Notes under the pieces: generated by a model | What the model was told of the DNA's origin: nothing | What the model saw: only the letters and a program-made list of their open reading frames with translations | The model's database searches: none | Position numbers and translations under genes: made by a program | Shown: positions 1,225 through 46,630 of the stretch, in pieces | Numbering within the stretch: the first letter of the stretch is position 1 | Layout of the letters: the number at the start of each line of letters is the position of its first letter | Assembly: GCA_946636615.1 (NCBI GenBank) | Contig: CAMPBE010000003.1 | Span: forward strand, 15,928 to 79,927 | Direction: 5' to 3' | Source of the DNA: an uncultured bacterium | GTDB lineage: Bacteria; Cyanobacteriota; Vampirovibrionia; Gastranaerophilales; Gastranaerophilaceae | Length of the DNA stretch: 64,000 bases

Positions 1225-2547
1225 TTATAACCTGTCAGGAATTACATCATGTGCAATGATATCATCTAAAGTCTCTCTATTAATTATAATATCAGATTGT
1301 GAATTATTTACAAGTACCATGGCCGGTTTTTGAACTCTATTGTAGTTAGATGCCATAGAATAATTATATGCTCCTGTGTTGTATACGCAAATAATATCAC
1401 CTTCGTTTAATTTAGGTAAAGTAATATCTTTTATTAATATATCTCCGGATTCGCAGAAACGACCCGCAATAGTAACTTTTTCAATGAGTTCGTGGTCAGT
1501 GTTGTTGGCGACTTCTGCAACATATTCGGCTCCATACATTGAAGGTCTTGCGTTATCAGCCATTCCACCGTCAACCGCAATGTATTTTTTACCGTTAGGA
1601 ACTTGTTTTGAACTGCCTACAGTATATAACGTTACTCCTGATGTTGATATCACACTTCTTCCCGGTTCTAAAATTAATGTTGGAGCATCTATAGAATATT
1701 TTTTTATACATTCGTTTAATTTGTTTATAATAATATCTGCAATTTCATATGTAGCAGGAGGCTTGTCTGATTCATTATATTTTACACCAAGTCCGCCTCC
1801 AATATTAATTTCATTTAGTTTTAATCCAAATTTCTTATCTAATCTGGAGATTTCTTTTGTTAAAATTTCAACTTCATCACCATATATAGAGGTTTCAAAT
1901 ATTTGAGAACCTATATGTGCGTGTAGACCATGTAATTTAAGATTTTTATAATCGTTAAGAATTAATTCAACAGCTTCATCAATTTGAGTTAAATCAAATC
2001 CAAATTTGGAATCTAAGTGTCCCGTTTGAATATATTCATGAGTATGGCATTCTATTCCAGGAGTAATTCTGAGCAAAATATCAACTGTTTTATTGTATGA
2101 TTTTGCGATTTCGTTAAGCAGAGAAAGCTCAAAGAAATTATCAACAGATATGCGGCCCACACCTAATTCTATCGCCAAACTTAATTCTTCATATGACTTG
2201 TTGTTACCGTTAAACAGAACTTTTGTCATATCAACTCCGGCTTTATATACAGTGTAAATTTCACCTGCTGAAACTGTATCAAACCCAAAACCTTCTGAGT
2301 GTAAAATTTTTGCAATAGCTTTAGTACATAATGCTTTAGACGCGTACATCATATTAACATTATGGTATTTTTCAAAAGCCTTTTTGTAATCCTGACAAAT
2401 TCCTCTTACTGTTGCTTCATCAATAACATATAAAGGAGTGTTATATTTTTCAGCTAAATCAACCAAATCACATCCGCCAATTTCAATATTACCTGACGAA
2501 TTGAGTTTTGTAGTTATAGGCTTTAAAGATTGATTGATGCTCTTCAT
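1225..2547 (-). CDS. lysA: Diaminopimelate decarboxylase
   Basis: 440-aa ORF with PLP-dependent Orn/DAP/Arg decarboxylase motifs: YASKA, HAHIGSQI, EPGRS and CESGD. Confidence 0.9.
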   Translation of the reverse strand: MKSINQSLKPITTKLNSSGNIEIGGCDLVDLAEKYNTPLYVIDEATVRGICQDYKKAFEKYHNVNMMYASKALCTKAIAKILHSEGFGFDTVSAGEIYTVYKAGVDMTKVLFNGNNKSYEELSLAIELGVGRISVDNFFELSLLNEIAKSYNKTVDILLRITPGIECHTHEYIQTGHLDSKFGFDLTQIDEAVELILNDYKNLKLHGLHAHIGSQIFETSIYGDEVEILTKEISRLDKKFGLKLNEINIGGGLGVKYNESDKPPATYEIADIIINKLNECIKKYSIDAPTLILEPGRSVISTSGVTLYTVGSSKQVPNGKKYIAVDGGMADNARPSMYGAEYVAEVANNTDHELIEKVTIAGRFCESGDILIKDITLPKLNEGDIICVYNTGAYNYSMASNYNRVQKPAMVLVNNSQSDIIINRETLDDIIAHDVIPDRL

Positions 2548-11475: not shown

Positions 11476-12639
11476 ATGTCTATAGAAGAAATAAGAAAAG
11501 AACATGAACTTGTAGATTTGTTTTGTACTTTGGCGGAAATTCCATCACCATCTTTACATGAAGAAAATGTGGCAAATTGGATAAAAGATTATTGCGATAA
11601 AAATAATATTCCCTGCAGGCTTGATGATTATGGAAACATAAGGATAGAAATTCCTGCAACTGCAGAGGGTAAGGAATCATTGTTGTTATCTTCTCATATG
11701 GATGTAATAGGTGATGATAGTCCGGTAAAAACATATTTGGATGAATGCGGAAATATTCATGCAGAAGGCAGGACACTTGGCGGAGACGATAAAGCAGGAG
11801 TCGCAAATGCTCTTTTGCTTGCGAAAGAAATAGCAAATTCCGATATGGCTCATGGTGGCTTGGAATGTGTGTTTACAAGAGATGAAGAATCCGGCATGTC
11901 AGGTATTCGCCATGTCAATTTTAAAGATATAAAATCTAAATATCTTCTTGTTTGTGATAGCGATACACTTGGACAGTTAGAAATTTCAGGTGCTAGTTAT
12001 ACGCAAGTAAGAATTGAGGTTCACAGTCATAAAGGTGGTCATTCAGGTATTGATATCGGTGATAAAACAAGAGCTAATGCCGCAAAATTGATTGCAAATT
12101 TAATAGCAAGATTGCCTCAAGGCGTTTTTTATGAAGAAGGCGGAATGGTTGTTACATCATGTAACTTAGGCGGAATTGATGCCGGAAAAATTGAAGTTAC
12201 AAATATTATTAACTCTGATGCTGCAGTAAGCTATTCTATAAGAAGCTCAAGTCGTAAAAAGGAAGATGAATTAAAAGCGTTGATGTCAAAAACTGTTGAA
12301 GATTTTCAGGCAGAAGTGGCAGATGTAGCAAATGTTTCAATTAGTTTTAAAGAACATGTTCCTCCGTTTGAAAAAGTTGATGATGAATATATTCCTATAC
12401 TTTTCGAAGCTGCTGCAAAAAAAGCAGGAGTAAAACCCGATATTACATCGTTCCATGCTGCAGCAGAAACTCATATTTATGCTAATGAAACAAATTCAAA
12501 AGGTGAAAAATTTATTCCATATTTGGTTGGGCTTGCTACCGTATGTAATATGCATACCAAAGATGAATATTTAGACTATAATTCAATGCTAAAAGGCCAT
12601 GTTCTTCTAAAAGAATTTTTTGAAGCTTTTAACAAATAA
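11476..12639 (+). CDS. M20-family metallopeptidase (PepT/PepD-like)
   Basis: 387-aa ORF with SSHMDV, GGDDKAGVA and TRDEESGMSG metal-ligand motifs, preceded by AAGGAG. Confidence 0.8.
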   Translation: MSIEEIRKEHELVDLFCTLAEIPSPSLHEENVANWIKDYCDKNNIPCRLDDYGNIRIEIPATAEGKESLLLSSHMDVIGDDSPVKTYLDECGNIHAEGRTLGGDDKAGVANALLLAKEIANSDMAHGGLECVFTRDEESGMSGIRHVNFKDIKSKYLLVCDSDTLGQLEISGASYTQVRIEVHSHKGGHSGIDIGDKTRANAAKLIANLIARLPQGVFYEEGGMVVTSCNLGGIDAGKIEVTNIINSDAAVSYSIRSSSRKKEDELKALMSKTVEDFQAEVADVANVSISFKEHVPPFEKVDDEYIPILFEAAAKKAGVKPDITSFHAAAETHIYANETNSKGEKFIPYLVGLATVCNMHTKDEYLDYNSMLKGHVLLKEFFEAFNK

Positions 12640-12640
12640 A

Positions 12641-12660
12641 AAGAGCCTTTTGGCTCTTTT
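12641..12660. terminator. Bidirectional intrinsic terminator between convergent genes
   Basis: AAGAGCC-TTTT-GGCTCTT followed by a T-run, with an A-run upstream. Confidence 0.7.
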
Positions 12661-12661
12661 T

Positions 12662-14572
12662 TTAGCTGAATGCTTTGAATGATCTTTCTACGTTTTTATT
12701 TATAACTTCTTTTATTGATTCGTATTCGGTTTGTAATGCATTGTGTTCTGTGTCGAGTTTTTTTAAATCTTGATCATATTTTTTGTCTTTATTTTCAATT
12801 TCAGTAACCGTATTTTTATATTGAACTTCTGCAATTGCTATTGCAACTTCATCATCTTGAGATACAATGTCAACTGCACTCGTGTATGCTTTAGAAACCC
12901 AATCGAATTGTCCCATGTCCGGATATTTTGCAGAACCGTCTTCAAAGAATGTCGCTTGTTCTAATGTTACTATTCCGTGTTCTAAAGCGAACTTCAACCA
13001 TTCAGAATTGTTCAAAAGATTTTCTTCAAGTTCTACAAAATTGCTTTTGTCAATTTCTTCCGTATGACCAACTTTTGCACCGCCTCCCATACGATACCAC
13101 AGATTTGTGTACCATTGAAATTTAGCATCTTTTTCATCAGGAACTTCTTTTGTAGGCTCACCAAGTTTCAATATAGCATCTTGTACTTTTTGCGCTAATT
13201 CTGCAAAGCTATCTATCCATTCATTTACTTTTTGGCATAAGGCATTGTATCCAGTTTGCCAATCGTTATGTTTTGCTTCATAATTAGTATATAGTTGATT
13301 TCTGTATGTTTCGAAATTTGCTTTGATTTCTGCATCTAGTTTTGTCTGTAATCCTGATAAATTGTCGTACATTAGATTCCACCTATTAACTAAATCTGAA
13401 TTGCTACAGCCACCTGTTGTTGATGTTATGCTATATCTGCCAGAATTTAATTCTGTAGTTCTGCTGCCAACACATCCATTTTTGTCTAATGTGTTAACAA
13501 CATCACAGTATAAATCTATTATTGATTGTTTTGTGTCTTGAACACATGTATATTCTGAAAAAGTATTTAGTGCATTACCAAGAGCCGAAGATGTTTCGGT
13601 ATAACCAAATTGTAAATTAGTTAAAGAAACATAATCCTCTTTTGGATTATTTGCAGTAATTGTAATATTTTGTGATGAATTTTGAATTGTAGAATTGCCG
13701 TTATAAATGCCATCTCTACCCCATAGTAGTGCAGCTAGGTTGTGTTCCATATGACCTATACCATCATGTGAGTCTCCAACTGCACTATGACATTGTTGTC
13801 CGTTATATGCAGTTACTAATGATGCGAAGTCTGGTGATGAAGGTTTTACAGGTTCAGTCCAAGTTGGTTCGTCACCTATTGCATATGTTGGTGGATTTGT
13901 GATTGTATTTACATATTTGCCAGTTAAACCACTTGATCTTATTAAATCATATATTCCTGATGTAGTATCGTTTATTGTGGTGCCGATACCTGAAGTTAGA
14001 CTGTTATAATCTGCAAGAGTGTGTGGAATAGTGGCAAAATTATTGTATATTGTACTTGCAACTGAATTAATTCTGTTCAAATATTCAGAAAGTTTATTTT
14101 GTACATCTCCGACTGAGGTAACATCTGTTGCTGTTAAATATTCAGCCCATTCATCGCCTAATATTGTTTGCAATTGATCTGCGTATTCATCGTTATCTAC
14201 AGTAACAGTATTAACACCGTTCAATTTCATGTATTCAAGGTAATCTCCATTTGCAGCCATATATGTTTTTATATCAGAACCTGATAATAAAATTTGACCG
14301 TTTGTGTTTACCATTGCATATTGATTTTTTAAATCACCATAGCCCAATAAAACATTTGCTGTCAACGGAGTATATGTTTTATCTCCGTTTGCATCATATT
14401 GACCGAATACCAATTTTTTTGAAGCCAAAGCATCCATGTACTTTTGGCTTGCTTCTGTTGATTGAGTCGCAAGTCTTAATTTAGAATTTGTAATTGTCTG
14501 CGCACGAAATTCATTGTTAGTCAATCGACTTGTAATACTTAGTAATCGCGCTTGTGATGCGGACATTCCCAT
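12662..14572 (-). CDS. Unknown 636-aa protein, paralog 1 of a pair with conserved helical termini and a variable core
   Basis: Long ORF. The start is placed at MGMSASQARLL (AAAGGA upstream) by analogy with paralog 36362..38473. Both termini align with that paralog (see findings). No signal peptide was seen. Confidence 0.85.
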   Translation of the reverse strand: MGMSASQARLLSITSRLTNNEFRAQTITNSKLRLATQSTEASQKYMDALASKKLVFGQYDANGDKTYTPLTANVLLGYGDLKNQYAMVNTNGQILLSGSDIKTYMAANGDYLEYMKLNGVNTVTVDNDEYADQLQTILGDEWAEYLTATDVTSVGDVQNKLSEYLNRINSVASTIYNNFATIPHTLADYNSLTSGIGTTINDTTSGIYDLIRSSGLTGKYVNTITNPPTYAIGDEPTWTEPVKPSSPDFASLVTAYNGQQCHSAVGDSHDGIGHMEHNLAALLWGRDGIYNGNSTIQNSSQNITITANNPKEDYVSLTNLQFGYTETSSALGNALNTFSEYTCVQDTKQSIIDLYCDVVNTLDKNGCVGSRTTELNSGRYSITSTTGGCSNSDLVNRWNLMYDNLSGLQTKLDAEIKANFETYRNQLYTNYEAKHNDWQTGYNALCQKVNEWIDSFAELAQKVQDAILKLGEPTKEVPDEKDAKFQWYTNLWYRMGGGAKVGHTEEIDKSNFVELEENLLNNSEWLKFALEHGIVTLEQATFFEDGSAKYPDMGQFDWVSKAYTSAVDIVSQDDEVAIAIAEVQYKNTVTEIENKDKKYDQDLKKLDTEHNALQTEYESIKEVINKNVERSFKAFS

Positions 14573-14672
14573 AATACATGAATCCTTTCTCATGTTGTAT
14601 TACGGTATATGTGGGGCAATTCTTTAATACTTTTAAGTAATTGTAAAGTTATGTTAATAATAAAAATTTTTG

Positions 14673-14701: not shown

Positions 14702-15352
14702 TTATATTGAAACTGTTAATGTTTCTAATTTTAATTCTATAGGATTTTCTTCTATTATTTCTGTTTCTAAATCCGATGCATTAACAATCTGTCCTGCGGG
14801 TGCCATTTTATATTCCGCTTTGGCTTTTGGAATGTTTGTTTTTGGAGCTTGTGCTGTATATGTTCCGGATTTTACCTTTGCAACTATAGGATCAGGAGTT
14901 GTTTTTTGTCTCTTTACATCTGCAGTAATTTTTCTAACAAAATTTCTTGTTTCTGCATATGGTGGAATTGAGTTATTATATTTTTTTACATTTCCAGGGC
15001 CTGCATTATATGCTGCAAGCGCTAATTCTACGGAACCAAACATGTTATACATTTTTTTGTAATACATAATTCCGCCTTTAATATTGTCATTTAATGAATA
15101 TGGGTTTAATCCCATTCTTCTTGCAGTAGACGGCATCAATTGAAATACTCCCACTGCACCGTGTGAACTTCTTGCTTCATGTCTAAATCCTGACTCAGTA
15201 CGTGCAATACTAAGAGCTATAGCAGGATCTACACCCATTGAAATAGCGTGTTTTACTATTTTTGCTTTTACAGCGTTCACATCTGTTGCTTGCGCAGGCG
15301 CATTAACAAATATTGCACACAGCAGTGTAAAAGTTAATAATAGTTTCTTCAA
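14702..15352 (-). CDS. Secreted lytic transglycosylase (SLT domain)
   Basis: 216-aa ORF with a TTG start after AGAGGA and a signal peptide. It carries the SLT catalytic motif ESGFRHEA...GVFQLMPSTA...AYNAGPGNV. Confidence 0.85.
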   Translation of the reverse strand: MKKLLLTFTLLCAIFVNAPAQATDVNAVKAKIVKHAISMGVDPAIALSIARTESGFRHEARSSHGAVGVFQLMPSTARRMGLNPYSLNDNIKGGIMYYKKMYNMFGSVELALAAYNAGPGNVKKYNNSIPPYAETRNFVRKITADVKRQKTTPDPIVAKVKSGTYTAQAPKTNIPKAKAEYKMAPAGQIVNASDLETEIIEENPIELKLETLTVSI

Positions 15353-32395: not shown

Positions 32396-33415
32396 TTATA
32401 ATATGGGTGGAATATACCCATTATTTACAAGATAAAATTTGTTAATATTCTTAGGATAAATCTTTCCGCCCATTATTCCTGAAAAATATTCAGCCATAAA
32501 TTCATCTAAGCTATATGAATACAATGAAACATTTTCAGGTATTTGTATATCTTTTGCAATTTTTTGATATTTGCTTGTATCACCAATTAATGTTGAACCT
32601 GCACCCACATTATTAAGAGTGTGACCAACTTCATGATATATAATTCCATCAATAGTTGGATTTGCGAGATATCCTTTTTCTTCTTGTACAATTTTAAATA
32701 TATCATCAGAATAAATTACATATCTGTCTTTTAAAGCTTTATTTACTATTGCCTCGTTCATTTCATCTTCTAATGTATATCTTACCTTAGGAAATTCCCG
32801 CACTCCTTTTTGGTGCATATTTTTAAAAGCAGTATAAATGTTTTGTGAAATTTTTTCATGATCAGTTAAGCGTGCATCAATGCCCAATTCTGCAAGTTTA
32901 TTTTCTATATCTATTACTTTTGGATTTGTTGATTTAGGGAATATTATATCGTCAAAAACACTAACAAATTTTGCACGAGCACTATTACCTATTTCGCCAT
33001 ACTTATCAAGAAGTTCTTTTGTTGTATTTAAAGGATCTACACCTTCATTTCTTCTTAAATATTCAGGCCATGAGCTTTTTATGTCATAAAATAGTTTACG
33101 TATTTCATCTTGTTCTACTGCGGTAAATTTTTGCTCTCTAATGGAATATAATAATTCTTCTTCGGATTTGTTTAAATATTTTCTTAATTTTGGATTTTCT
33201 TTTGCTATAAATTGCAATAAATTATCTTTTTTAAATATTTCAATATTTTTTTCAAGTTTTGTTACAAAAGGAACGACATTATTTAGTTTAGAATCATACT
33301 TTATGTTTTTAATATTTGGAATTACTTTTTGTGGTTTGGCGCAGAAGAGCAGACTTTTGCAGAGTTTTCCCCCACGCTCAACCATAAAATTAAAAGCAAC
33401 TTTTTGTAATCCCAT
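32396..33415 (-). CDS. Hypothetical protein with an HExxH zinc-metalloprotease motif
   Basis: 339-aa ORF containing IIYHEVGHTL and a downstream DEFMAEYFSG, a possible third-ligand Glu. No family was recognised. Confidence 0.6.
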   Translation of the reverse strand: MGLQKVAFNFMVERGGKLCKSLLFCAKPQKVIPNIKNIKYDSKLNNVVPFVTKLEKNIEIFKKDNLLQFIAKENPKLRKYLNKSEEELLYSIREQKFTAVEQDEIRKLFYDIKSSWPEYLRRNEGVDPLNTTKELLDKYGEIGNSARAKFVSVFDDIIFPKSTNPKVIDIENKLAELGIDARLTDHEKISQNIYTAFKNMHQKGVREFPKVRYTLEDEMNEAIVNKALKDRYVIYSDDIFKIVQEEKGYLANPTIDGIIYHEVGHTLNNVGAGSTLIGDTSKYQKIAKDIQIPENVSLYSYSLDEFMAEYFSGIMGGKIYPKNINKFYLVNNGYIPPIL

Positions 33416-34300: not shown

Positions 34301-35236
34301 TTATTCTAATGTAAGATTAAACGGTTTTTGGTTCTCAAATGTTGAACCTATGTGTTTTTCATTATTTGAGACTATTTTAAATCCTTTTTCAATGTTAATG
34401 CAAAATTTGTCAGGCAAAAGCTGCTTGAAATCATTTTTATTTCCGTTATTGTTAATTGTTGTTATTGTTACTATATTGTTATTTTCATATGTGTAATTTA
34501 CAATTTCCAAAGGCTTTTCGACATCCCATGAGGCATAATGGAATCCTTTTATCGGTTTGTTGTTTTTATATGTGACAATCCAAAGCCCCTCTGATTCTCG
34601 TCCAGATTCATATCGAGCAATCATTTTTATTTCGTTGTTGTCGTCGATTATTTGCATTTCAGATGCGCAAACTTCATATTTACAATTGTTGCCTTGTATT
34701 GTAAGGATTTTCCCACCTTCGGTATTTACTCCTGTAATCGTTGTTTCTCTTGGGAGTTTGCCCTCTTTTATACATTGCTCAAGATAATTTATTTCTTCGA
34801 TATTTGTTTTTGAATTATTTTTAGAAAATTCCAATAAAACTCTTGCACTGTTTGCTTTTCCTAATAAATCAAGAATGTATTTAGGTGTAGGCATAACTGC
34901 GGATTTAGAGTTCTCTTGTTTTGGCTGAATATCTTGTGTTAAAGCTTTTTCTGCTTCATCTATGTATTCAGGTTTATTTATAACTTTTTTTTGCATATCG
35001 GGAGTTTGAATCAGTTGACTAAACACCCTGCCGTTGGCGGATTTTGTTTCCACAATGGTTCCGACGGGCATTTCAAATTCTTCCCCGTTTATATCCATTT
35101 TTCCGCCTTTTAAAAAGGTTATATATTTTACCTGTGAACCGTCATCAAAAGTTACTTCTTGCAGCTTACTGCCATCATCAAGAATCTTACATTTAATTTC
35201 GACTTTTTTTCCTTTATATGAAGTAACCTTAGTCAA
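34301..35236 (-). CDS. Hypothetical protein (orphan, 311 aa)
   Basis: Long ORF with a TTG start after AAAGGA, second gene of a two-gene minus-strand operon. No recognisable motif. Confidence 0.6.
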   Translation of the reverse strand: MTKVTSYKGKKVEIKCKILDDGSKLQEVTFDDGSQVKYITFLKGGKMDINGEEFEMPVGTIVETKSANGRVFSQLIQTPDMQKKVINKPEYIDEAEKALTQDIQPKQENSKSAVMPTPKYILDLLGKANSARVLLEFSKNNSKTNIEEINYLEQCIKEGKLPRETTITGVNTEGGKILTIQGNNCKYEVCASEMQIIDDNNEIKMIARYESGRESEGLWIVTYKNNKPIKGFHYASWDVEKPLEIVNYTYENNNIVTITTINNNGNKNDFKQLLPDKFCINIEKGFKIVSNNEKHIGSTFENQKPFNLTLE

Positions 35237-35247
35237 TTTATTATCCT

Positions 35248-35613
35248 TTACACGGTTGCTATTACTGTATCTGCTGATACAGGAGTAAATTCTGTGAATT
35301 TTATCTCAGGATTTTTAAATGCTGCATACTCAGGTAATAGTTTATCATAAACACTGTCAATTTCACCGGAACGATTAAGTTCCGCTAATGTTAAATTAGC
35401 GTTATCTCTGTTAGACTTCACAGTTGCTGCAAGTAGTCGTTCTTCATCAGAACGAGCTTCTTCGTTGTCATTATATGTAAAGTCGTCACTAGTTGTACCT
35501 TGATTATTGCTGTAAGGCTGCGAATATGGAGATATTCGTTCTTTTATAGCATTTCTAAGGTTTTTAAAAGCTGATTTGATCTGTGGAAAAGAGACTCCGG
35601 GTATGTTATCCAT
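35248..35613 (-). CDS. Hypothetical protein (orphan, 121 aa)
   Basis: A strong AAGGAGG lies 6 nt upstream of the ATG. No recognisable motif. Confidence 0.65.
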   Translation of the reverse strand: MDNIPGVSFPQIKSAFKNLRNAIKERISPYSQPYSNNQGTTSDDFTYNDNEEARSDEERLLAATVKSNRDNANLTLAELNRSGEIDSVYDKLLPEYAAFKNPEIKFTEFTPVSADTVIATV

Positions 35614-35886: not shown

Positions 35887-36189
35887 ATGAAAAAGATTTT
35901 ATTAGCGTTGGCAGTTTTGTTATTTACCACAGTAGCAGCAAGGGCAGAGTTTTTAGGTGGTTTTATTTATAACGGAGCAACAACTCCCGGCGGCGGTTAT
36001 ACTGCAGCAATTGCATCAAAACAAGGTTCTGCTACATGTAAAAATGTATGGTATATTGTTAGTGTAGGCGATTGTAGCGTCAAAGCGGCAATGAAAAACG
36101 GCGGTATCCGTTCTTTAGCAGGTTATGATGTACACAGAGAAAATATCTTAGGCTTTCAAACAATAACAGTAAAAGCTTGGGGAAATTAG
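35887..36189 (+). CDS. TRL-like small secreted protein
   Basis: 100-aa ORF after AAGGAG, with a signal peptide. The pattern G.IY....P.....K.G.A.C......VGD.S...A...GGI......D matches my recollection of the TRL-like family. Confidence 0.6.
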   Translation: MKKILLALAVLLFTTVAARAEFLGGFIYNGATTPGGGYTAAIASKQGSATCKNVWYIVSVGDCSVKAAMKNGGIRSLAGYDVHRENILGFQTITVKAWGN

Positions 36190-36242: not shown

Positions 36243-36290
36243 GTGGTTTAAATTTCCTGTTACATATCTTAACAATAATCTGTAAATTAT

Positions 36291-36318
36291 TAAAGTTTTT
36301 ATAAAAATATGCCGATAG
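36291..36318 (+). promoter_or_regulatory. Sigma-28 (FliA/SigD)-type promoter candidate
   Basis: TAAAGTTT (36291-36298), a 12-nt spacer, then GCCGATAG (36311-36318), 43 nt upstream of the ATG at 36362. The textbook consensus is TAAAGTTT-N11-GCCGATAA. Confidence 0.55.
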
Positions 36319-36361
36319 AGCATAGTGAAAGTTACTAAGGAAATCGAAAGGAAACATCGTC

Positions 36362-38473
36362 ATGGGAATGGCGGCAGGACAAGCAAGATTATTATCAATA
36401 ACATCTCGTATGTCTGATAACGAGCTAAGAGCTCAGATTATCAACAATAATAAGATGCGTCTTGCTGCTGAAAGCTCTCAAGCAAGCGAAGCTTATGTTG
36501 CAGCCTTGAATGAAGCACAGTTAATGTTTACTAATTACGATATTGATAACAATGCAACTTATCAAAATTTAACTTATAATGCGTTAACTTCATTTAATCC
36601 TTATAACAATCAATATGCTTTGATAAATTCATCAGGCAATGTATTGTTGTCAGAAAAGGATGCTGAGAACTATAGAAAATCCGGTGGAAATCTTGATGCG
36701 TTCTTGGGTATGTATGGGCTGGATTATACAACTACATATTTTGATCAATTGCCTGAGAATGTAGAATTTGAAGGCTTTGAAGGTTTGACGGTCGGTAGGG
36801 ATATTCTTGAATATATATATTCAGGCAATGTTCCTGAAGGTACAGAGTTTGATCTAGGTAAGATTGGCAAGATAAATCTTCATCCAACAGGAAGTTCTGC
36901 TATATCTTACATTGGTACTGCAAATTCGGAAGCTGTTTACGATTATGATAAATATTTGCAGCAATATACCGAAACAAAGAATAAATATCTTGGTTATATT
37001 ATGCAAGTTATGAAAGAAGAATTTAAAACATTGGTAAAAGATGGAGATTTCAAAGATTCTGAAGGTAAAGCTCTTGACTCTATAACTGATATAAAAACAT
37101 ATATAAATAGTGTTATTGCAGAAGCAGATGCCGAAGAATCAACAGCACGAACAAGTACATCAAAATTCGAAACTAATGTTGTTGATGCGTTATCTAAGTT
37201 GATAACTAATATGAATGCTGAAAAATATACTAAAAATTCTGAAAGTGCAACTAACTTTTTTATAGATATTGAAAATTTGATAAAGAATAATGCAGGAAGC
37301 ATTGCAAAAGATGAATTTACAAGTGATAATTACAGATATATGACATCAGATGGCAATGACTTGTATATTGTTACAAAAGACGAGACAAATCCGGTTATTG
37401 AATTAAAAGTAGATAATAAAGGAAATTTATATTCTATAAGTGAAACAGAAACAACAGGAGAGAACGGTCAAACAAATTACACTTCATCTGGATATAACGA
37501 CTCTGTATTTAGTGAAGGTGTCACTCCCAAGGTATCATCAGGCGATAAGGAGGGTTGGAGTAAAAATCCTTGGGTAAGTCCAGCTGTTTTCTCAACAGCT
37601 GAGGAAGATACCGTAAATATCGACGGCATGATATTACATCAAGTAAAAAATAAAGAAGTTGATTTTAGTTTATATACAATCAACGATATTGATAACATGG
37701 CAGGTATTGCTAAACAAGTCATTGCAACAATTGAATCTTCATTAGACACTTGTTGGGATTCGACTGCGAAATATTGGTCAGATGGTGCTGAAGATTCAGC
37801 ATTAAAAGCTGCTTATGTAGCTTATCAAGATGCGGCTAAGAGTTTAAGCGAAACAATATTTGGAAAAGACGTACCTGAAAAGTATGACGATTTAGATGAT
37901 ATATACTCACTTTATAATAATTATAATTTTTCCGAACTACCATTTTCTGTTGATTTTAAGAAAGTTTTTGTGAATATCATAATGGATCAGTTATTGGATA
38001 CATATGGTGAACCTAATTATGCTTGGATAGACCAATCTTCATTGCCTACATCAACAAGTTCTTATAACACAAATGGTCAGGCTAAGGCTCAATGGTATGA
38101 AAATCTGTTTAATCGTATAAAATCCGGCGGATATCAGGTTCTTCAAGACGGTCTTGCTTCAAGCAAAGAGTGGATACAATTCGCATTTGAAAGCGGTATT
38201 GTAACAATGGAACAAATAGATTCTCTTGGTAATTGGCAGCCGTTGATATATTCAAATTGTAGTGATATTACATCGCAAACAAATGAAAAAATGATTGCAA
38301 AAGCTGAAGCTGAATACAGAAATGCAATGAATAAGATTGAAAACAAAGATAAACGATATGATTTGGAATTGAAAAATATTGATACAGAACACAATTCATT
38401 GATGGCAGAATATGAATCAATAAAGACTGCAATAGACAAAAACGTAGAGCGAACATTTAAACTGTACTCATAG
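36362..38473 (+). CDS. Unknown 703-aa protein, paralog 2 of the conserved-termini/variable-core pair
   Basis: Long ORF with AAAGGA upstream. Its N-terminal ~115 aa and C-terminal ~150 aa align with 12662..14572, while the centre is unalignable. No signal peptide was seen. Confidence 0.88.
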   Translation: MGMAAGQARLLSITSRMSDNELRAQIINNNKMRLAAESSQASEAYVAALNEAQLMFTNYDIDNNATYQNLTYNALTSFNPYNNQYALINSSGNVLLSEKDAENYRKSGGNLDAFLGMYGLDYTTTYFDQLPENVEFEGFEGLTVGRDILEYIYSGNVPEGTEFDLGKIGKINLHPTGSSAISYIGTANSEAVYDYDKYLQQYTETKNKYLGYIMQVMKEEFKTLVKDGDFKDSEGKALDSITDIKTYINSVIAEADAEESTARTSTSKFETNVVDALSKLITNMNAEKYTKNSESATNFFIDIENLIKNNAGSIAKDEFTSDNYRYMTSDGNDLYIVTKDETNPVIELKVDNKGNLYSISETETTGENGQTNYTSSGYNDSVFSEGVTPKVSSGDKEGWSKNPWVSPAVFSTAEEDTVNIDGMILHQVKNKEVDFSLYTINDIDNMAGIAKQVIATIESSLDTCWDSTAKYWSDGAEDSALKAAYVAYQDAAKSLSETIFGKDVPEKYDDLDDIYSLYNNYNFSELPFSVDFKKVFVNIIMDQLLDTYGEPNYAWIDQSSLPTSTSSYNTNGQAKAQWYENLFNRIKSGGYQVLQDGLASSKEWIQFAFESGIVTMEQIDSLGNWQPLIYSNCSDITSQTNEKMIAKAEAEYRNAMNKIENKDKRYDLELKNIDTEHNSLMAEYESIKTAIDKNVERTFKLYS

Positions 38474-38664
38474 TGCTACGCACGTAGAAACTTGGGTTGT
38501 TGCATAAACTTATATTGTCATTGTGAGCAAATCAAAAGCTTGATTTGCGAAACAATCAAGCTTATTTATCAATATAGTAAAAATATTGCATGTAAAATTT
38601 TATCTATGCATGAACATATTGGCTAGATTACTTCGTCGGCAGTCCTCTGCCTCCTCGTAATGAC
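38473..38664 (+). repeat. 192-bp perfect direct repeat, copy 1
   Basis: Identical base for base to 38733-38924. It starts at the last base of the stop codon of the upstream gene. Confidence 0.95.
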
Positions 38665-38732
38665 ATTATTATCGATGAGATTACTACGCAAACTGCGTTT
38701 GCTCGTAATGACAAAAAAACTGTCATTGCGAG

Positions 38733-38924
38733 GTGCTACGCACGTAGAAACTTGGGTTGTTGCATAAACTTATATTGTCATTGTGAGCAAATCAAAAGCT
38801 TGATTTGCGAAACAATCAAGCTTATTTATCAATATAGTAAAAATATTGCATGTAAAATTTTATCTATGCATGAACATATTGGCTAGATTACTTCGTCGGC
38901 AGTCCTCTGCCTCCTCGTAATGAC
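38733..38924 (+). repeat. 192-bp perfect direct repeat, copy 2
   Basis: Identical to 38473-38664 with a period of 260 bp. The 68-bp spacer contains a further head/tail palindromic unit. Confidence 0.95.
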
Positions 38925-38976
38925 TGTATTAAATATATGAGATTACTAAGTAAACGCATTATAATGACAATAAAAA

Positions 38977-39010: not shown

Positions 39011-40351
39011 TTAATTATTCTTACAGAATTCTTCTAATGTAACCCATTGATTATTAACCTGTACATTCATTGTTCCGTCACTATTAGTTTTTACATTATA
39101 ACTTTTATCTTTATTATTATCGCCATCATTTTGTACTATTTTGGTTACATTATATGAATTACTTCTTATACGTCCATCTTTAAATTTAATTGCTCCTCTG
39201 TTAATATGGTCACCATCTTCGCATACAAATTCATATTGGTATCCTTTTTGGGTGATTATACGTTTATCAAAGCTCATACCTGAGTCAACGCTAATCTCTG
39301 CAATTTTTATATCACCATCATATATCATGCCACCTAGATACTCATTATTTGGATTCTCAATTTTATAAGTTTTAGAGTTATTATTGCCATTGCTAGCAGC
39401 AGATTCTTTTCTGTATGCATATAAAGCTTTCATACTTGGTATGTCTAATTTATCTAAGTTCTCAACTTTAAAGCCTTTTATGAAATTACCATCTTCATCA
39501 AATACGCTTGGATTTGCAGCTATTAAAGCTTGTTGTAATTTTTTAATGTCATATTTGTTTATATTGGCAACCTTTTGTTTTAATATTGTTTCTGCAAAAT
39601 GTGCTGCGGCCAAATGACCTTTTTTTCTTGATTCAAGGAATGTTTCTTTTAATTTTTCGCCAATTGCTTTGTCATTTTTTGCTTTATACCAACCTTCAGG
39701 GACTATGCCTCGTCTGCCTCGTGGGACAACCGAAGGAACATTGCCATCATTGCCTTCTGTGCCGTCAGCGGCTGCGCCTTCTTCGGCTGCAGCAACTTCT
39801 TCTTCAGCTGCTGTTTCAGTTTCTCTTCTTTGAGAAGAAACAACTTCTTCTTCTTCATCTTCTGCTTTAGCCTTTTCTTTATCAGCTTCTTGAGCCTCTT
39901 GAGCCATTTCAAACAGTTCTTCCATAGAACTTGCTTTTATTAGATTACCTTTTGCATCTCTAGCAAGAACTGTACCGTCAGATAATGTTTGTATATTTTT
40001 ATATGTACCGCTTAAAATTTGTTGCATTTTTATATCGTCTTGCTGCTCATTAGATACTGCACCGCCACGGCCATCCAAATTTTGCTGTTGCAAATATAAT
40101 CCGGGGTACATTGTTGGCATATATCCGTACGGACTTTGTTGCTGTTGTCTGTTCGGAAAAAAGTTTTCCATTGCCATATTAAAAAATTGTTGTATCATTT
40201 GATACTTCATCATTGTTGCAAAAATCGGCGGCATTCTAAATCCACCACCATGACCTCCGCAGCAATTTCCTCCCGAGTAGTATCCGCCACTCGGAATGTT
40301 ATTATTGACAACTACAGTATCGCCGCCATTCCATGGCCACCAATTCACCAT
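39011..40351 (-). CDS. Hypothetical low-complexity protein (W/G/C/M/Q-rich N-terminus, acidic linker, beta-rich C-terminus)
   Basis: The ORF extends to 40369. The start is preferred at MVNWWPW (40351) because AAGGAA lies 8 nt upstream. No family was recognised. Confidence 0.65.
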   Translation of the reverse strand: MVNWWPWNGGDTVVVNNNIPSGGYYSGGNCCGGHGGGFRMPPIFATMMKYQMIQQFFNMAMENFFPNRQQQQSPYGYMPTMYPGLYLQQQNLDGRGGAVSNEQQDDIKMQQILSGTYKNIQTLSDGTVLARDAKGNLIKASSMEELFEMAQEAQEADKEKAKAEDEEEEVVSSQRRETETAAEEEVAAAEEGAAADGTEGNDGNVPSVVPRGRRGIVPEGWYKAKNDKAIGEKLKETFLESRKKGHLAAAHFAETILKQKVANINKYDIKKLQQALIAANPSVFDEDGNFIKGFKVENLDKLDIPSMKALYAYRKESAASNGNNNSKTYKIENPNNEYLGGMIYDGDIKIAEISVDSGMSFDKRIITQKGYQYEFVCEDGDHINRGAIKFKDGRIRSNSYNVTKIVQNDGDNNKDKSYNVKTNSDGTMNVQVNNQWVTLEEFCKNN

Positions 40352-40483
40352 AACAATATTCCTTATCATATACTTTTATTGCATCTGTATATATAAAGTA
40401 TATACTTATTTGTTTTTTGCCTTATTAATGACATTTCGTTACAAATGTTTACAATAAATCTAATTTTATGCTAAACTGTATAT

Positions 40484-45718: not shown

Positions 45719-46630
45719 CTATCCGACATAACCGGACAATACTTCTTGTCCCAACACGGAGAATCTCATCTTCTTTAATGCCCTCAATTCTGTTTGGCGT
45801 ATGCATTCTTTTGTTACACCATAAATGTTTCCAATTTCTTCAAGTGTCATTTTTGCATTATCGTTAAGCCCATATCTCATCCTGACAACTTCTTGTTCTC
45901 GTTCCTTTAATGTTGATAGAACGTTCATAATATCTGAACGTAAGTTTTCAAATTCTACTTGTTCTGTTGCAGAGGCTTTTTCGTCTTCAATTATGTCTGC
46001 GACATTCATTTCTTTTCCATCTGCATTTTCTAAACCACTTTCAATAGAGATAGTTTTTGAGTATGCGTTTAGAAATGTATCAATTTTATCAACTGTTATA
46101 TTCATTTTCTTCGCAACATCTTCTGTTTTAACCTGACAATTTGATTCTCTTTCCATTTCGGTTTTTAATTTTGAAAATTTTGAAAGTGTCTCTTGGATAT
46201 AAACCGGTATTTTCATGCAATGTGATTGCTCTGATATTGCTTTGAACATTGCTTGTTTTATCCACCAGCTTGCATAAGTGGCAAATTTGTATCCTAATTT
46301 ATAATTAAACTTTTCTGCTGCAATCATCAAACCTACATTTCCCTCTTGAATTAAATCAATCAATGGTAAATGTGACATGTGAATTGCTTTTTTTGCAATT
46401 GTAATGACAAGTCTTAAATTTGATTTTATTAGTTTTTGTCTGGCTTCTTCATCGCCTTCTTTAGCTTTTTTGGCTAATTCTTTTTCTTCCTCAAGGCTCA
46501 AAGAGGAATAGTCTGAAATTTCTCTAATGTAGGCAGCTAATACAGTGTCATTAGAAGCTTCTACAATTTCATTTTTTGCGGGGTTTGAGAATTCTGTCTT
46601 TCTCATCTTAATAAACGAATTTTTTGTCAT
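45719..46630 (-). CDS. RpoD-family RNA polymerase sigma factor
   Basis: 303 aa. Regions 1.2 to 4 are recognisable: NLRLVITIAKK, FATYASWWIKQAM and TLEEIGNIYGVTKECIRQTELRALKKMR. Confidence 0.9.
   Translation of the reverse strand: MTKNSFIKMRKTEFSNPAKNEIVEASNDTVLAAYIREISDYSSLSLEEEKELAKKAKEGDEEARQKLIKSNLRLVITIAKKAIHMSHLPLIDLIQEGNVGLMIAAEKFNYKLGYKFATYASWWIKQAMFKAISEQSHCMKIPVYIQETLSKFSKLKTEMERESNCQVKTEDVAKKMNITVDKIDTFLNAYSKTISIESGLENADGKEMNVADIIEDEKASATEQVEFENLRSDIMNVLSTLKEREQEVVRMRYGLNDNAKMTLEEIGNIYGVTKECIRQTELRALKKMRFSVLGQEVLSGYVG

Follow-up and report, generated by a model that had tools for sequence, protein, structure and literature searches.

The closest described counterparts of the proteins considered here are those exported through the bacterial flagellum. 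Flagellins (FliC/Hag; PF00669, PF00700) have no Sec signal, are most conserved in their N- and C-terminal helices, and carry between these a hypervariable central region that varies in length and is dispensable; they are acidic and poor in Cys, occur as several paralogs per genome, and are encoded by monocistronic genes with sigma-28-type promoters. FlgK, FlgL and FliD, of 300-700 amino acids (aa), similarly have terminal helices with large domains between them, and are expressed late (under sigma-28) in model organisms. Non-flagellar proteins, such as FlaC, FspA and CiaI/Fed of Campylobacter, also leave the cell by flagellar export, and basal bodies have been retained by Buchnera; such cases combine a sigma-28-class promoter and the lack of a signal peptide with a host-associated lineage in which the flagellum is partly lost and the export core kept. 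These features recur, as far as they can be predicted from sequence, in a family of proteins of the Gastranaerophilales, two members of which (703 and 636 aa) are encoded in a stretch of 64,000 nucleotides (nt) from an uncultured bacterium of the Gastranaerophilaceae (GenBank assembly GCA_946636615.1, contig CAMPBE010000003.1, positions 15,928 to 79,927, forward strand), the whole of which was analysed and is called the window below. We propose tentatively, with a probability of roughly 0.4, that these are type-III-exported hairpin proteins of the late flagellar regulon, analogous but not homologous to flagellin.

There are also differences from the described systems. The family has no detectable sequence or structural homology to flagellin, is predicted to have an alpha/beta head beside its helices and not a D1 helical bundle, has a highly charged C-terminal helix, whereas the D0 helices of flagellin are buried and rich in Q/N/S/A/L, and is kept in genomes from which genes for filament, cap and junction are reportedly absent. 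It is set apart from FlgK, FlgL and FliD by hhalign probabilities of at most 0.3% and by the absence of any Flg_bb_rod, Flg_bbr_C or FliD signal in 64 members. The known non-flagellar substrates of flagellar export are either small or flagellin homologs (FlaC) and have other termini and another fold.

The two window proteins (Table 1) had been described in a first-pass annotation as a paralogous pair with homologous ends, and BLASTP confirmed this: residues 1-134 of the 703-aa protein are 44% identical to the N-terminus of its paralog (E 6e-31) and residues 574-703 are 45% identical to residues 483-636 of the paralog (E 4e-33), while nothing significant was aligned between these conserved ends. 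The identity counts given in that annotation (31 of 50 N-terminal and 31 of 45 C-terminal residues) were reproduced by a hand recount, and its two further motifs, QWY.NL..R...GG and EW..FA.E.GIVT.EQ, proved to be nearly invariant throughout the family. No third family copy was found in the window by tblastn. Hydropathy profiles gave no signal peptide or transmembrane segment in either protein, as had been claimed; the maximum of the Kyte-Doolittle 19-residue mean is 0.89 for the 703-aa protein and 0.78 for its paralog, compared with 1.74 for the signal peptide of a neighbouring SLT lytic transglycosylase. The composition rich in N, T, S, G, D and Y, which is like that of surface proteins, was likewise borne out, these residues making up 45% of both proteins and at most 39% of any of 48 other open reading frames (ORFs) of the window, and the isoelectric points (pI) are 4.4 and 4.6, respectively. 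The 7 Cys attributed to the smaller protein had to be corrected to 6, located in a centre unrelated to that of the 703-aa protein, as the seventh belongs to an upstream extension, MRKDSCI. The length of 636 aa is counted from the MGM start codon of the paralog, and the mechanical ORF is 7 codons longer upstream, to position 14593; translation of the extension is improbable, since the -10 element is predicted to end at 14600 and a putative ribosome-binding site, GAAAGGA, sits between 14593 and 14572.

The pair belongs to a large family. A protein search over 5.8 billion sequences gave ~800 matches per paralog, which saturated the candidate pool, and an exhaustive profile search gave 2899 cluster representatives (at 50% identity) with E<=1e-3, including 675 with E<=1e-30. 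Taxonomy and names were taken from the best 150 of the 2899; the homologues are named 'unknown [Clostridium sp. CAG:768/CAG:967]' or 'hypothetical protein ... Candidatus Gastranaerophilaceae', and there was no Pfam domain or informative name among the family members inspected. A scan of one genome per GTDB species located 297 encoding stretches, of which the best 79 have titles that refer to Gastranaerophilales or Melainabacteria, are uninformative ('uncultured bacterium'), or belong to metagenome-assembled genomes (MAGs) that are probably mislabelled; the complete genome of MEL.A1 is among the carriers (locus L025; loci are designated by L numbers). The family stands in the usual Gastranaerophilales synteny in loci titled Muribaculaceae (L005, L071, L078), Heliobacteriaceae (L069) and Clostridium sp. 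(L009, L014, L027, L044), labels that are probably wrong. As far as the inspected records show, the superfamily comes from Gastranaerophilales/Melainabacteria in every titled or source-named record. It has at least three paralogous subfamilies, two of them conserved and syntenic, and two co-occur in the genome of the window (the 703-aa protein in subfamily 1 and the 636-aa protein in subfamily 2). Members of the third start with MGMSASQARFLSLTARKNN and end with ...LDTEENAISTELESVKKVISKNVESSFKTFSA, and are also labelled Gastranaerophilales, by a match on the first 103 aa of one member; this subfamily and further divergent members have only the terminal helices in common with the rest.

Conservation was measured as the mean frequency of the commonest residue in an alignment of 64 sequences, with the numbering of the 703-aa protein (Table 1). 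The flagellin-like design of conserved ends around a variable centre, which the first-pass annotation had read from two proteins, is general to the family, with values of 0.93 and 0.89 at the two ends and 0.26-0.41 in the centre. The terminal helices are conserved on all faces and at nearly every position, not merely along a hydrophobic stripe. Members range from 276 to 1047 aa in length, and in the shortest (P0249) the N-terminal 120 residues are joined straight to the C-terminal 150. This 276-aa form occupies the orthologous slot between SLT lytic transglycosylase and M20 peptidase genes on 13 independent contigs, and the centre is therefore an optional insert of 0 to ~770 aa; a natural form of 318 aa is also without it. 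At the strain level, amino-acid differences were concentrated in the centre in three of four clusters of >90% identity.

AlphaFold2 models were built with the family alignment for the 703-aa protein (mean predicted local distance difference test score, pLDDT, 83.7) and for the 276-aa core (pLDDT 88.7), the latter consisting of a helix (2-49), an alpha/beta head and a second helix (215-275). In the larger model the conserved segments 51-130 and 546-640 make up the alpha/beta head, and residues ~131-545 are the variable insert, partly helical and partly beta. The earlier assignment of the conserved parts as alpha-helical thus agrees with the models for residues ~2-49 and 642-702, and disagrees with them for 51-130 and 546-640, which are modelled as a mixed alpha/beta domain. 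Foldseek searches with the full-length model against the PDB, and with the 276-aa core against the PDB and BFVD, gave no significant match (E 0.03-3, TM-score at most 0.37). The weak matches were to flagellins, complexes containing FlgK/L, hinges of structural maintenance of chromosomes (SMC) proteins with coiled coils, IpaD/SipD, colicin Ia and the ATP-synthase gamma subunit, and we read them as a generic resemblance between models with two long terminal helices and a head. IpaD/SipD, EspA and the SMC hinge with coiled coil, which were among the top matches of the 276-aa core, are generic hairpins of a stalk plus a head; their matches were not significant (E 0.03-1.6, TM-score 0.15-0.31, root-mean-square deviation 14-28 A) and there is no sequence similarity to the family. 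To our knowledge, no injectisomes occur in Gastranaerophilales. The terminal helices probably pair into an antiparallel stalk, because of the modelled topology and these weak matches. Scans of both window proteins against Pfam, NCBIfam and PHROG assigned no family and gave at most generic coiled-coil noise, and a sequence search of the PDB, with single sequences and then with a profile, found no match; the family has no annotation, and no relative of known structure was detectable.

Regulation was examined in the upstream regions of all 76 family genes whose 5' ends are intact, taken from 79 genome loci and the window. The motif TTAAAG(w3)-N-(G)CCG[A/T][T/A/C]A was found upstream of all 76, with the identical spacing TAAAG-N15-GCCGATA in 74, and stands 27-57 nt ahead of the ATG except in two genes with long leaders. 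In its strict form the motif occurs 48 times on both strands of 1.5 Mb of loci, compared with a mean of 1.0 in block shuffles, and 45 of these 48 occurrences are within 130 nt upstream of family genes. The sole strict match to TAAA-N14-17-CCGATA in the window is TTAAAGTTTTTATAAAAATATGCCGATA (36291-36317), upstream of the 703-aa gene. The Escherichia coli sigma-28 consensus, TAAAGTTT-N11-GCCGATAA, gives a spacer of 14 nt. The same spacer is found in the Pseudomonas aeruginosa fliC promoter, and the consensus elements given in a structural paper of 2026 are TCTAAAG at -35 and GCCGATAA at -10 (PMC12784957). Both elements of the family promoter fit this consensus, with a spacer of 15 nt that is 1 nt longer. 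Promoters of subfamily 2 are laid out in the same way, and their -10 element is weaker (ACCGTAA or GCCGTATA, for example); orthologous promoters of this subfamily read GCCGTATA in L084, GTCGTATA in L086 and TCCGTTAA in L090. The family genes are thus predicted to have a promoter of the sigma-28 class, that of late flagellar genes such as flagellin.

A direct repeat, TTGTAACA(-N3-4-TTGTAACA), precedes the -35 element by ~15-17 nt and is conserved in nearly all 76 upstream regions. Its period is 11 nt, and it reads GTTACAA on the opposite strand; we take it to resemble the cyanobacterial HLR1 box, which is bound by the response regulator RpaB. Homologs of RpaA and RpaB have been reported in Melainabacteria (supplement of PMC3787301). 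Downstream of the promoter, the family's 5' leader (CATAGTGAAAGTTACTAAGGAAA..GAAAGG) contains a short hairpin and two GGA motifs; its predicted RNA fold is weak (-9.4 kcal/mol, z-score -1.6), and no Rfam family matched it. Both window genes are monocistronic, with terminator-like hairpins on either side.

Apart from the family genes, this promoter had a single recurrent target in the genome loci, an acidic ORF of 46 aa (MYDDLRNEKIIVEI...ILNTSGLN), which is also preceded by the direct repeat. This ORF (MYDDLRNEKIIVEIVNLVDDIEQFENDIDAYCAFMKEVILNTSGLN) was found with the sigma-28-type promoter and the TTGTAACA element at ~1654-1875 (-) of L052 and in L017, L019, L035, L038, L059, L060, L062, L072 and L081, always directly upstream of a gene resembling NADH oxidase/CoA-disulfide reductase, and could encode a chaperone or regulator of the regulon. 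A metagenome scan with the pattern TTGTAACA-N14-18-TAAAG-N16-CCGATA returned at least 120 stretches (L093-L212). Among the matches listed, at least 19 were canonical family genes and at least 9 were divergent members of the superfamily; recurrent ORFs of small size (46, 51, 57 and 69 aa) were also present, as were many proteins of 400 to >1800 aa that have neither a signal peptide nor a Pfam domain. Two of these proteins had weak matches, one resembling anthrax lethal factor (L133) and one to EF-hand and RHS (L108). A canonical flagellin of 269 aa (L132, 6333-7139; Flagellin_N 2.3e-8, Flagellin_C 7.3e-8) has the full promoter architecture, including TTGTAACA. It takes the slot of the 46-aa ORF upstream of an NADH-oxidase-like gene that is 49% identical to its Gastranaerophilales ortholog, on a contig of 29% GC, and for these reasons it appears to belong to an organism related to those studied here. 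In so large a scan some matches by chance are to be expected, a few GC-rich ones are clearly of that kind, and a second flagellin (L202) has a sigma-70-like promoter; the promoter link between the family and flagellin therefore appears good but rests on one clear case. Together, the genes that share the promoter look like a sizeable uncharacterised regulon or secretome.

Published accounts describe partial loss of the flagellum in this lineage. MEL.A1 was reported to lack the genes of the filament, cap, junction and both the L ring and the P ring and to keep other flagellar genes (Di Rienzi 2013). Complete flagellar sets were found in three of nine Gastranaerophilales genomes (Soo et al. 2014), and in ~25% of those covered by a 2026 preprint, according to which ~75% keep a flagellar subset (flhB, fliI, flgG) to which its authors ascribe a possible secretion role. 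The family gene of MEL.A1 (L025) has an intact promoter, and the family persists in genomes reported to be without filament genes. No report of the conserved sigma-28-type promoter, the natural insert-less variants or the persistence in filament-less genomes was met in the literature searched. In one Gastranaerophilales MAG (L022, 17809-20912, minus strand) a flagellar cluster encoding a 277-aa FlgE/F/G-like protein, a FliK-like protein with a Flg_hook domain and two unknown ORFs was found 5.6-9 kb from the family gene, with glnA, a polyprenyl synthetase gene and rsgA between them; this proximity was treated as synteny, not linkage.

Because the family is large and fast-evolving, has a promoter of the late-flagellar type and combines a flagellin-like layout with an unrelated fold, it is a candidate cargo of the retained machinery. 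If our proposal is right, the family proteins would be late substrates of the flagellar type-III export apparatus, their terminal helices would pair as an antiparallel stalk with the variable insert at its distal tip, and the invariant ends would constitute an export and/or assembly module. These ends could serve for self-association into a filament- or tip-like structure, or for docking to the apparatus or to a chaperone, and the variable insert would be the exposed, diversifying part. In Gastranaerophilales without flagellin but with export, rod and hook genes, the family proteins would be the remaining cargo. A more far-reaching version, less likely than not but with a substantial chance of being right, is that the family is a non-homologous replacement or companion for flagellin: self-assembling or secreted helical hairpins in several subfamilies, which would pass through a reduced flagellar type-III apparatus under FliA and, in the gut lineages (the majority) in which flagellin, cap, junction and L/P rings have been lost, would either form an unseen filament, surface or periplasmic structure or be the main cargo of a flagellum turned into a secretion system that interacts with the host.

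Several observations weigh against export by the flagellar apparatus. No family gene in the loci examined shares an operon with flagellar genes, and the neighbours are of the housekeeping kind. No FliA gene was found in 2.4 Mb of loci, and a FliA-like BLAST match in the window (45719..46630) is an RpoD-type sigma factor, the only sigma factor gene present there. A gene for a sigma factor of the extracytoplasmic function (ECF) type was found downstream of the same promoter architecture (L099:3235-3798), so that a different sigma factor could be the one that reads the family promoters. The route across the outer membrane is problematic where the L and P rings are reportedly missing, as in genomes of the MEL.A1 type. 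No similarity of sequence or fold to any axial, needle or tip protein was detected, and the C-terminal helix consists to ~40% of charged residues (K/R/D/E) at positions that include invariant ones, which is more typical of a solvent-exposed coiled coil than of the D0 helices of flagellin.

The most serious alternative, which we hold to be unlikely though far from negligible, is that the family consists of cytoplasmic coiled-coil proteins with a cytoskeletal, scaffold or regulatory role that are merely co-regulated with the motility or late-flagellar regulon; the helical stalk would then serve dimerisation or the binding of a partner, and the centre would be poorly constrained. The invariant charges of the C-terminal helix are as in soluble coiled coils, the best of the non-significant Foldseek matches include the intracellular SMC hinge with coiled coil and ATP-synthase gamma, the neighbouring genes are of the housekeeping kind, and homologs of sigma-28 control non-flagellar genes in some non-flagellated bacteria (Chlamydia, and Streptomyces with WhiG). 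The composition of the pair (45% N/T/S/G/D/Y, pI 4.4) is, however, extreme beside that of cytoplasmic proteins encoded in the window, a non-homologous insert of 0-770 aa that diversifies at the strain level would be unusual for a cytoplasmic scaffold, and each genome keeps several diversified paralogs. The sharing of the promoter with many large proteins that lack signal peptides, among them those with the weak EF-hand-like and toxin-like matches, is also more suggestive of a secretome.

It is quite improbable that the proteins reach the surface or the medium by a non-flagellar route, such as a type-I-like system that reads the invariant C-terminus, under the promoter of a lineage-specific, possibly ECF, sigma factor. 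An acidic pI, few Cys residues, no N-terminal signal and an invariant C-terminus are hallmarks of type I substrates, and the family has them all, with the invariance extending to the extreme C-terminus. TolC-like, HlyD-like, ABC and MacB genes are clustered at a distance of 5-10 kb from the gene of subfamily 2 in the window, L084 and L086, but this ABC system is of the MacB/FtsX type and not a C39/HlyB-type exporter, and the N-terminus is as invariant as the C-terminus, which a C-terminal signal would not explain. The usual ECF promoter pattern is AAC/CGT. Autoregulation is typical of ECF sigma factors, and the ECF sigma factor gene mentioned above has the family's promoter; both elements of this promoter nevertheless fit the sigma-28 consensus and not the ECF pattern, and a canonical flagellin (L132) has the same promoter. 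The gut Melainabacteria have, moreover, been stated to lack a type I secretion system (Di Rienzi 2013).

Still less probable is true homology to the axial proteins (flagellin, FlgK, FlgL or FliD) with divergence so extreme that the sequence signal has been erased. Topology and regulation are common to the family and the axial proteins, flagellins head the Foldseek list for the full-length model (E 0.04-3), and the best of the hhalign alignments, a non-significant one to FliD, pairs the C-terminal helices in register (residues 643-675 of 703 with 413-445 of 468). Against this, hmmscan matched none of the 64 members to the Pfam models of flagellin (Flagellin_N/C), rod and hook (Flg_bb_rod, Flg_bbr_C) or FliD at E<=10, its sole output being generic coiled-coil noise (OVT1, DUF7491), although the same kind of scan found the flagellin of L132 by Flagellin_N and Flagellin_C and the FlgE/F/G-like protein of L022 by NCBIfam and Pfam models. 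The hhalign probability of the 64-sequence family alignment was 0.3% against FliC of E. coli and 0.09-0.23% against its FlgK, FlgL and FliD, and that of a second family alignment against a profile of three flagellins was 0.1%. The D0/D1 fold was not recovered either: in Foldseek searches of the PDB the best flagellin match of the full-length model had E 0.044 and TM-scores of 0.10/0.15, the 276-aa core matched flagellar proteins only at E>1 and a TM-score of ~0.2, and the predicted alpha/beta head beside the helices is without counterpart in flagellin D1. An ordinary flagellin recognised by Pfam is present on the Gastranaerophilales-related contig L132, and flagellin genes have been reported in Melainabacteria genomes (Di Rienzi 2013). 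The first-pass annotation had offered a very divergent flagellin class as one explanation; as a claim of homology this is not supported, Pfam, hhalign and Foldseek all being without significant match. No other known fold was matched significantly either.

That the family is a structural protein of a phage or mobile element, such as a fibre or tape-measure-like protein, is effectively refuted: phage fibres can have coiled-coil ends and a variable centre, and some weak BFVD matches are phage structural proteins (E 0.03-3), but no relative was found in IMG/VR contigs, GenBank phages or PLSDB plasmids, there was no PHROG match, the synteny with housekeeping genes on the chromosome is stable across dozens of species, and the GC content equals that of the flanks.

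Table 1. Positions of the two family genes and their flanking elements in the window, and residue ranges of the 703-aa protein
Feature	Position	Strand	Remarks
Gene of 703-aa subfamily-1 member	36362..38473	+	ORF, homologues, 64-sequence alignment, AlphaFold2 model, conservation profile
Predicted sigma-28 (FliA/SigD)-type promoter of 703-aa gene, TAAAGTTTTTATAAAAATATGCCGATA	36291..36317	+	-35 TTAAAG, -10 GCCGATA, 44 nt before ATG
Upstream element TGTTACA-N2-TCTTAACA	36258..36274	+	Window version of the family-wide TTGTAACA-N3-4-TTGTAACA direct repeat
Conserved 5' leader (CATAGTGAAAGTTACTAAGGAAATCGAAAGGAAAC)	36318..36361	+	6-bp hairpin near predicted 5' end; two GGA motifs, the second in the ribosome-binding site
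Gene of 636-aa subfamily-2 paralog	12662..14572	-	ORF, BLASTP against 703-aa protein, subfamily homologues, SLT-[gene]-M20 synteny
Predicted weaker sigma-28-type promoter of paralog, TAAAGAATTGCCCCACATATACCGTAA	14600..14626	-	Relaxed motif match, same spacing
Upstream element of paralog promoter, TATTAACA-N3-CTTTACAA	14641..14659	-	Compared with the family-wide element
Terminator-like hairpin	12638..12661	-	Directly 3' of paralog stop codon
Conservation, 703-aa protein	residues 1-50		0.93
Conservation, 703-aa protein	residues 51-130		0.77
Conservation, 703-aa protein	residues 131-545		0.26-0.41
Conservation, 703-aa protein	residues 546-640		0.77
Conservation, 703-aa protein	residues 641-703		0.89
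Helix (AlphaFold2 model)	residues 2-49
Small alpha/beta region (AlphaFold2 model)	residues 53-180
Helical bundles (AlphaFold2 model)	residues 190-310 and 443-548
Beta-rich domain (AlphaFold2 model)	residues 314-440
Alpha/beta region (AlphaFold2 model)	residues 554-640
Helix (AlphaFold2 model)	residues 642-702

The window has a GC content of ~33% and contains chromosomal genes for H+-pyrophosphatase, MutS2, TrkAH, a MacAB-TolC-like system, RecR, AccD, SmpB, Fmt, MnmA and an RpoD-like sigma factor. The arrangement of the subfamily-2 slot, SLT lytic transglycosylase-[gene]-M20 peptidase-MutS2, is identical in the window. The SLT gene (14702-15352, minus strand), which encodes a signal peptide, was always directly upstream of the subfamily-2 gene and in the same orientation (window, L084, L086 and L090-L092), with a terminator separating the two. 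Many envelope-spanning machines are accompanied by dedicated lytic transglycosylases; the adjacency may here be mere synteny.

The usual slot of subfamily 1 is SecY-PilZ-aminotransferase-[gene]-94-aa HEAT-like protein-503-aa membrane protein-patatin, and the 703-aa gene of the window sits outside it. The gene 3' of the subfamily-1 gene, for a helical, HEAT-like protein of 91-99 aa, was found in most loci (L001, 8202-8486; L025, 12203-12502; and 62 others), at a distance of ~75-400 nt, mostly 100-190 nt, and in five rearranged loci it is still adjacent in divergent orientation. This highly conserved protein has no Pfam or NCBIfam match and no homologue in the window. Four ORFs of 121-452 aa that flank the 703-aa gene (32396-33415, 34301-35236, 35248-35613 and 39011-40369) have no Pfam or NCBIfam match, and just upstream of the gene is one resembling a TRL-domain lipoprotein (35887-36189).

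Starting at the stop codon of the 703-aa gene, a direct repeat of 199 nt is present in two copies of 99% identity (38473-38671 and 38733-38931, period 260). It contains inverted motifs of the type GTCATTG(C/T)GAG...CTCGTAATGAC and hairpins on the minus strand, and has no Rfam family or convincing ORF; it could be a small dispersed element resembling a miniature inverted-repeat transposable element, or duplicated small RNA genes. An extension beyond the window on the 104-kb contig brought up genes for the cell wall, glnA and a glycosidase gene, and none that is flagellar or belongs to the family. Just past the end of the window, a 685-aa glycosidase-like ORF (L213, 7801-9858, minus strand) has a stretch of residues that are masked or unknown (X) close to its C-terminus, in a region for which the gene table of the collection has no called gene.

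Gastranaerophilales are common as symbionts in the gut of animals, humans included, and are the closest non-photosynthetic relatives of cyanobacteria; we know of no cultured representative. If the proteins of this family are exported, they would represent a new class among type-III substrates or filament subunits, and possibly a major surface antigen without a recognisable flagellin domain, in which the TLR5 epitope of flagellin is not expected. Their export would also be a clear example, in a free-living gut commensal, of a flagellum put to a new use in secretion. Should the proteins be cytoplasmic, the putative sigma-28-type regulon, which would comprise small acidic ORFs besides the family itself, and many large proteins with neither signal peptide nor known domain, would still be new biology for the lineage.

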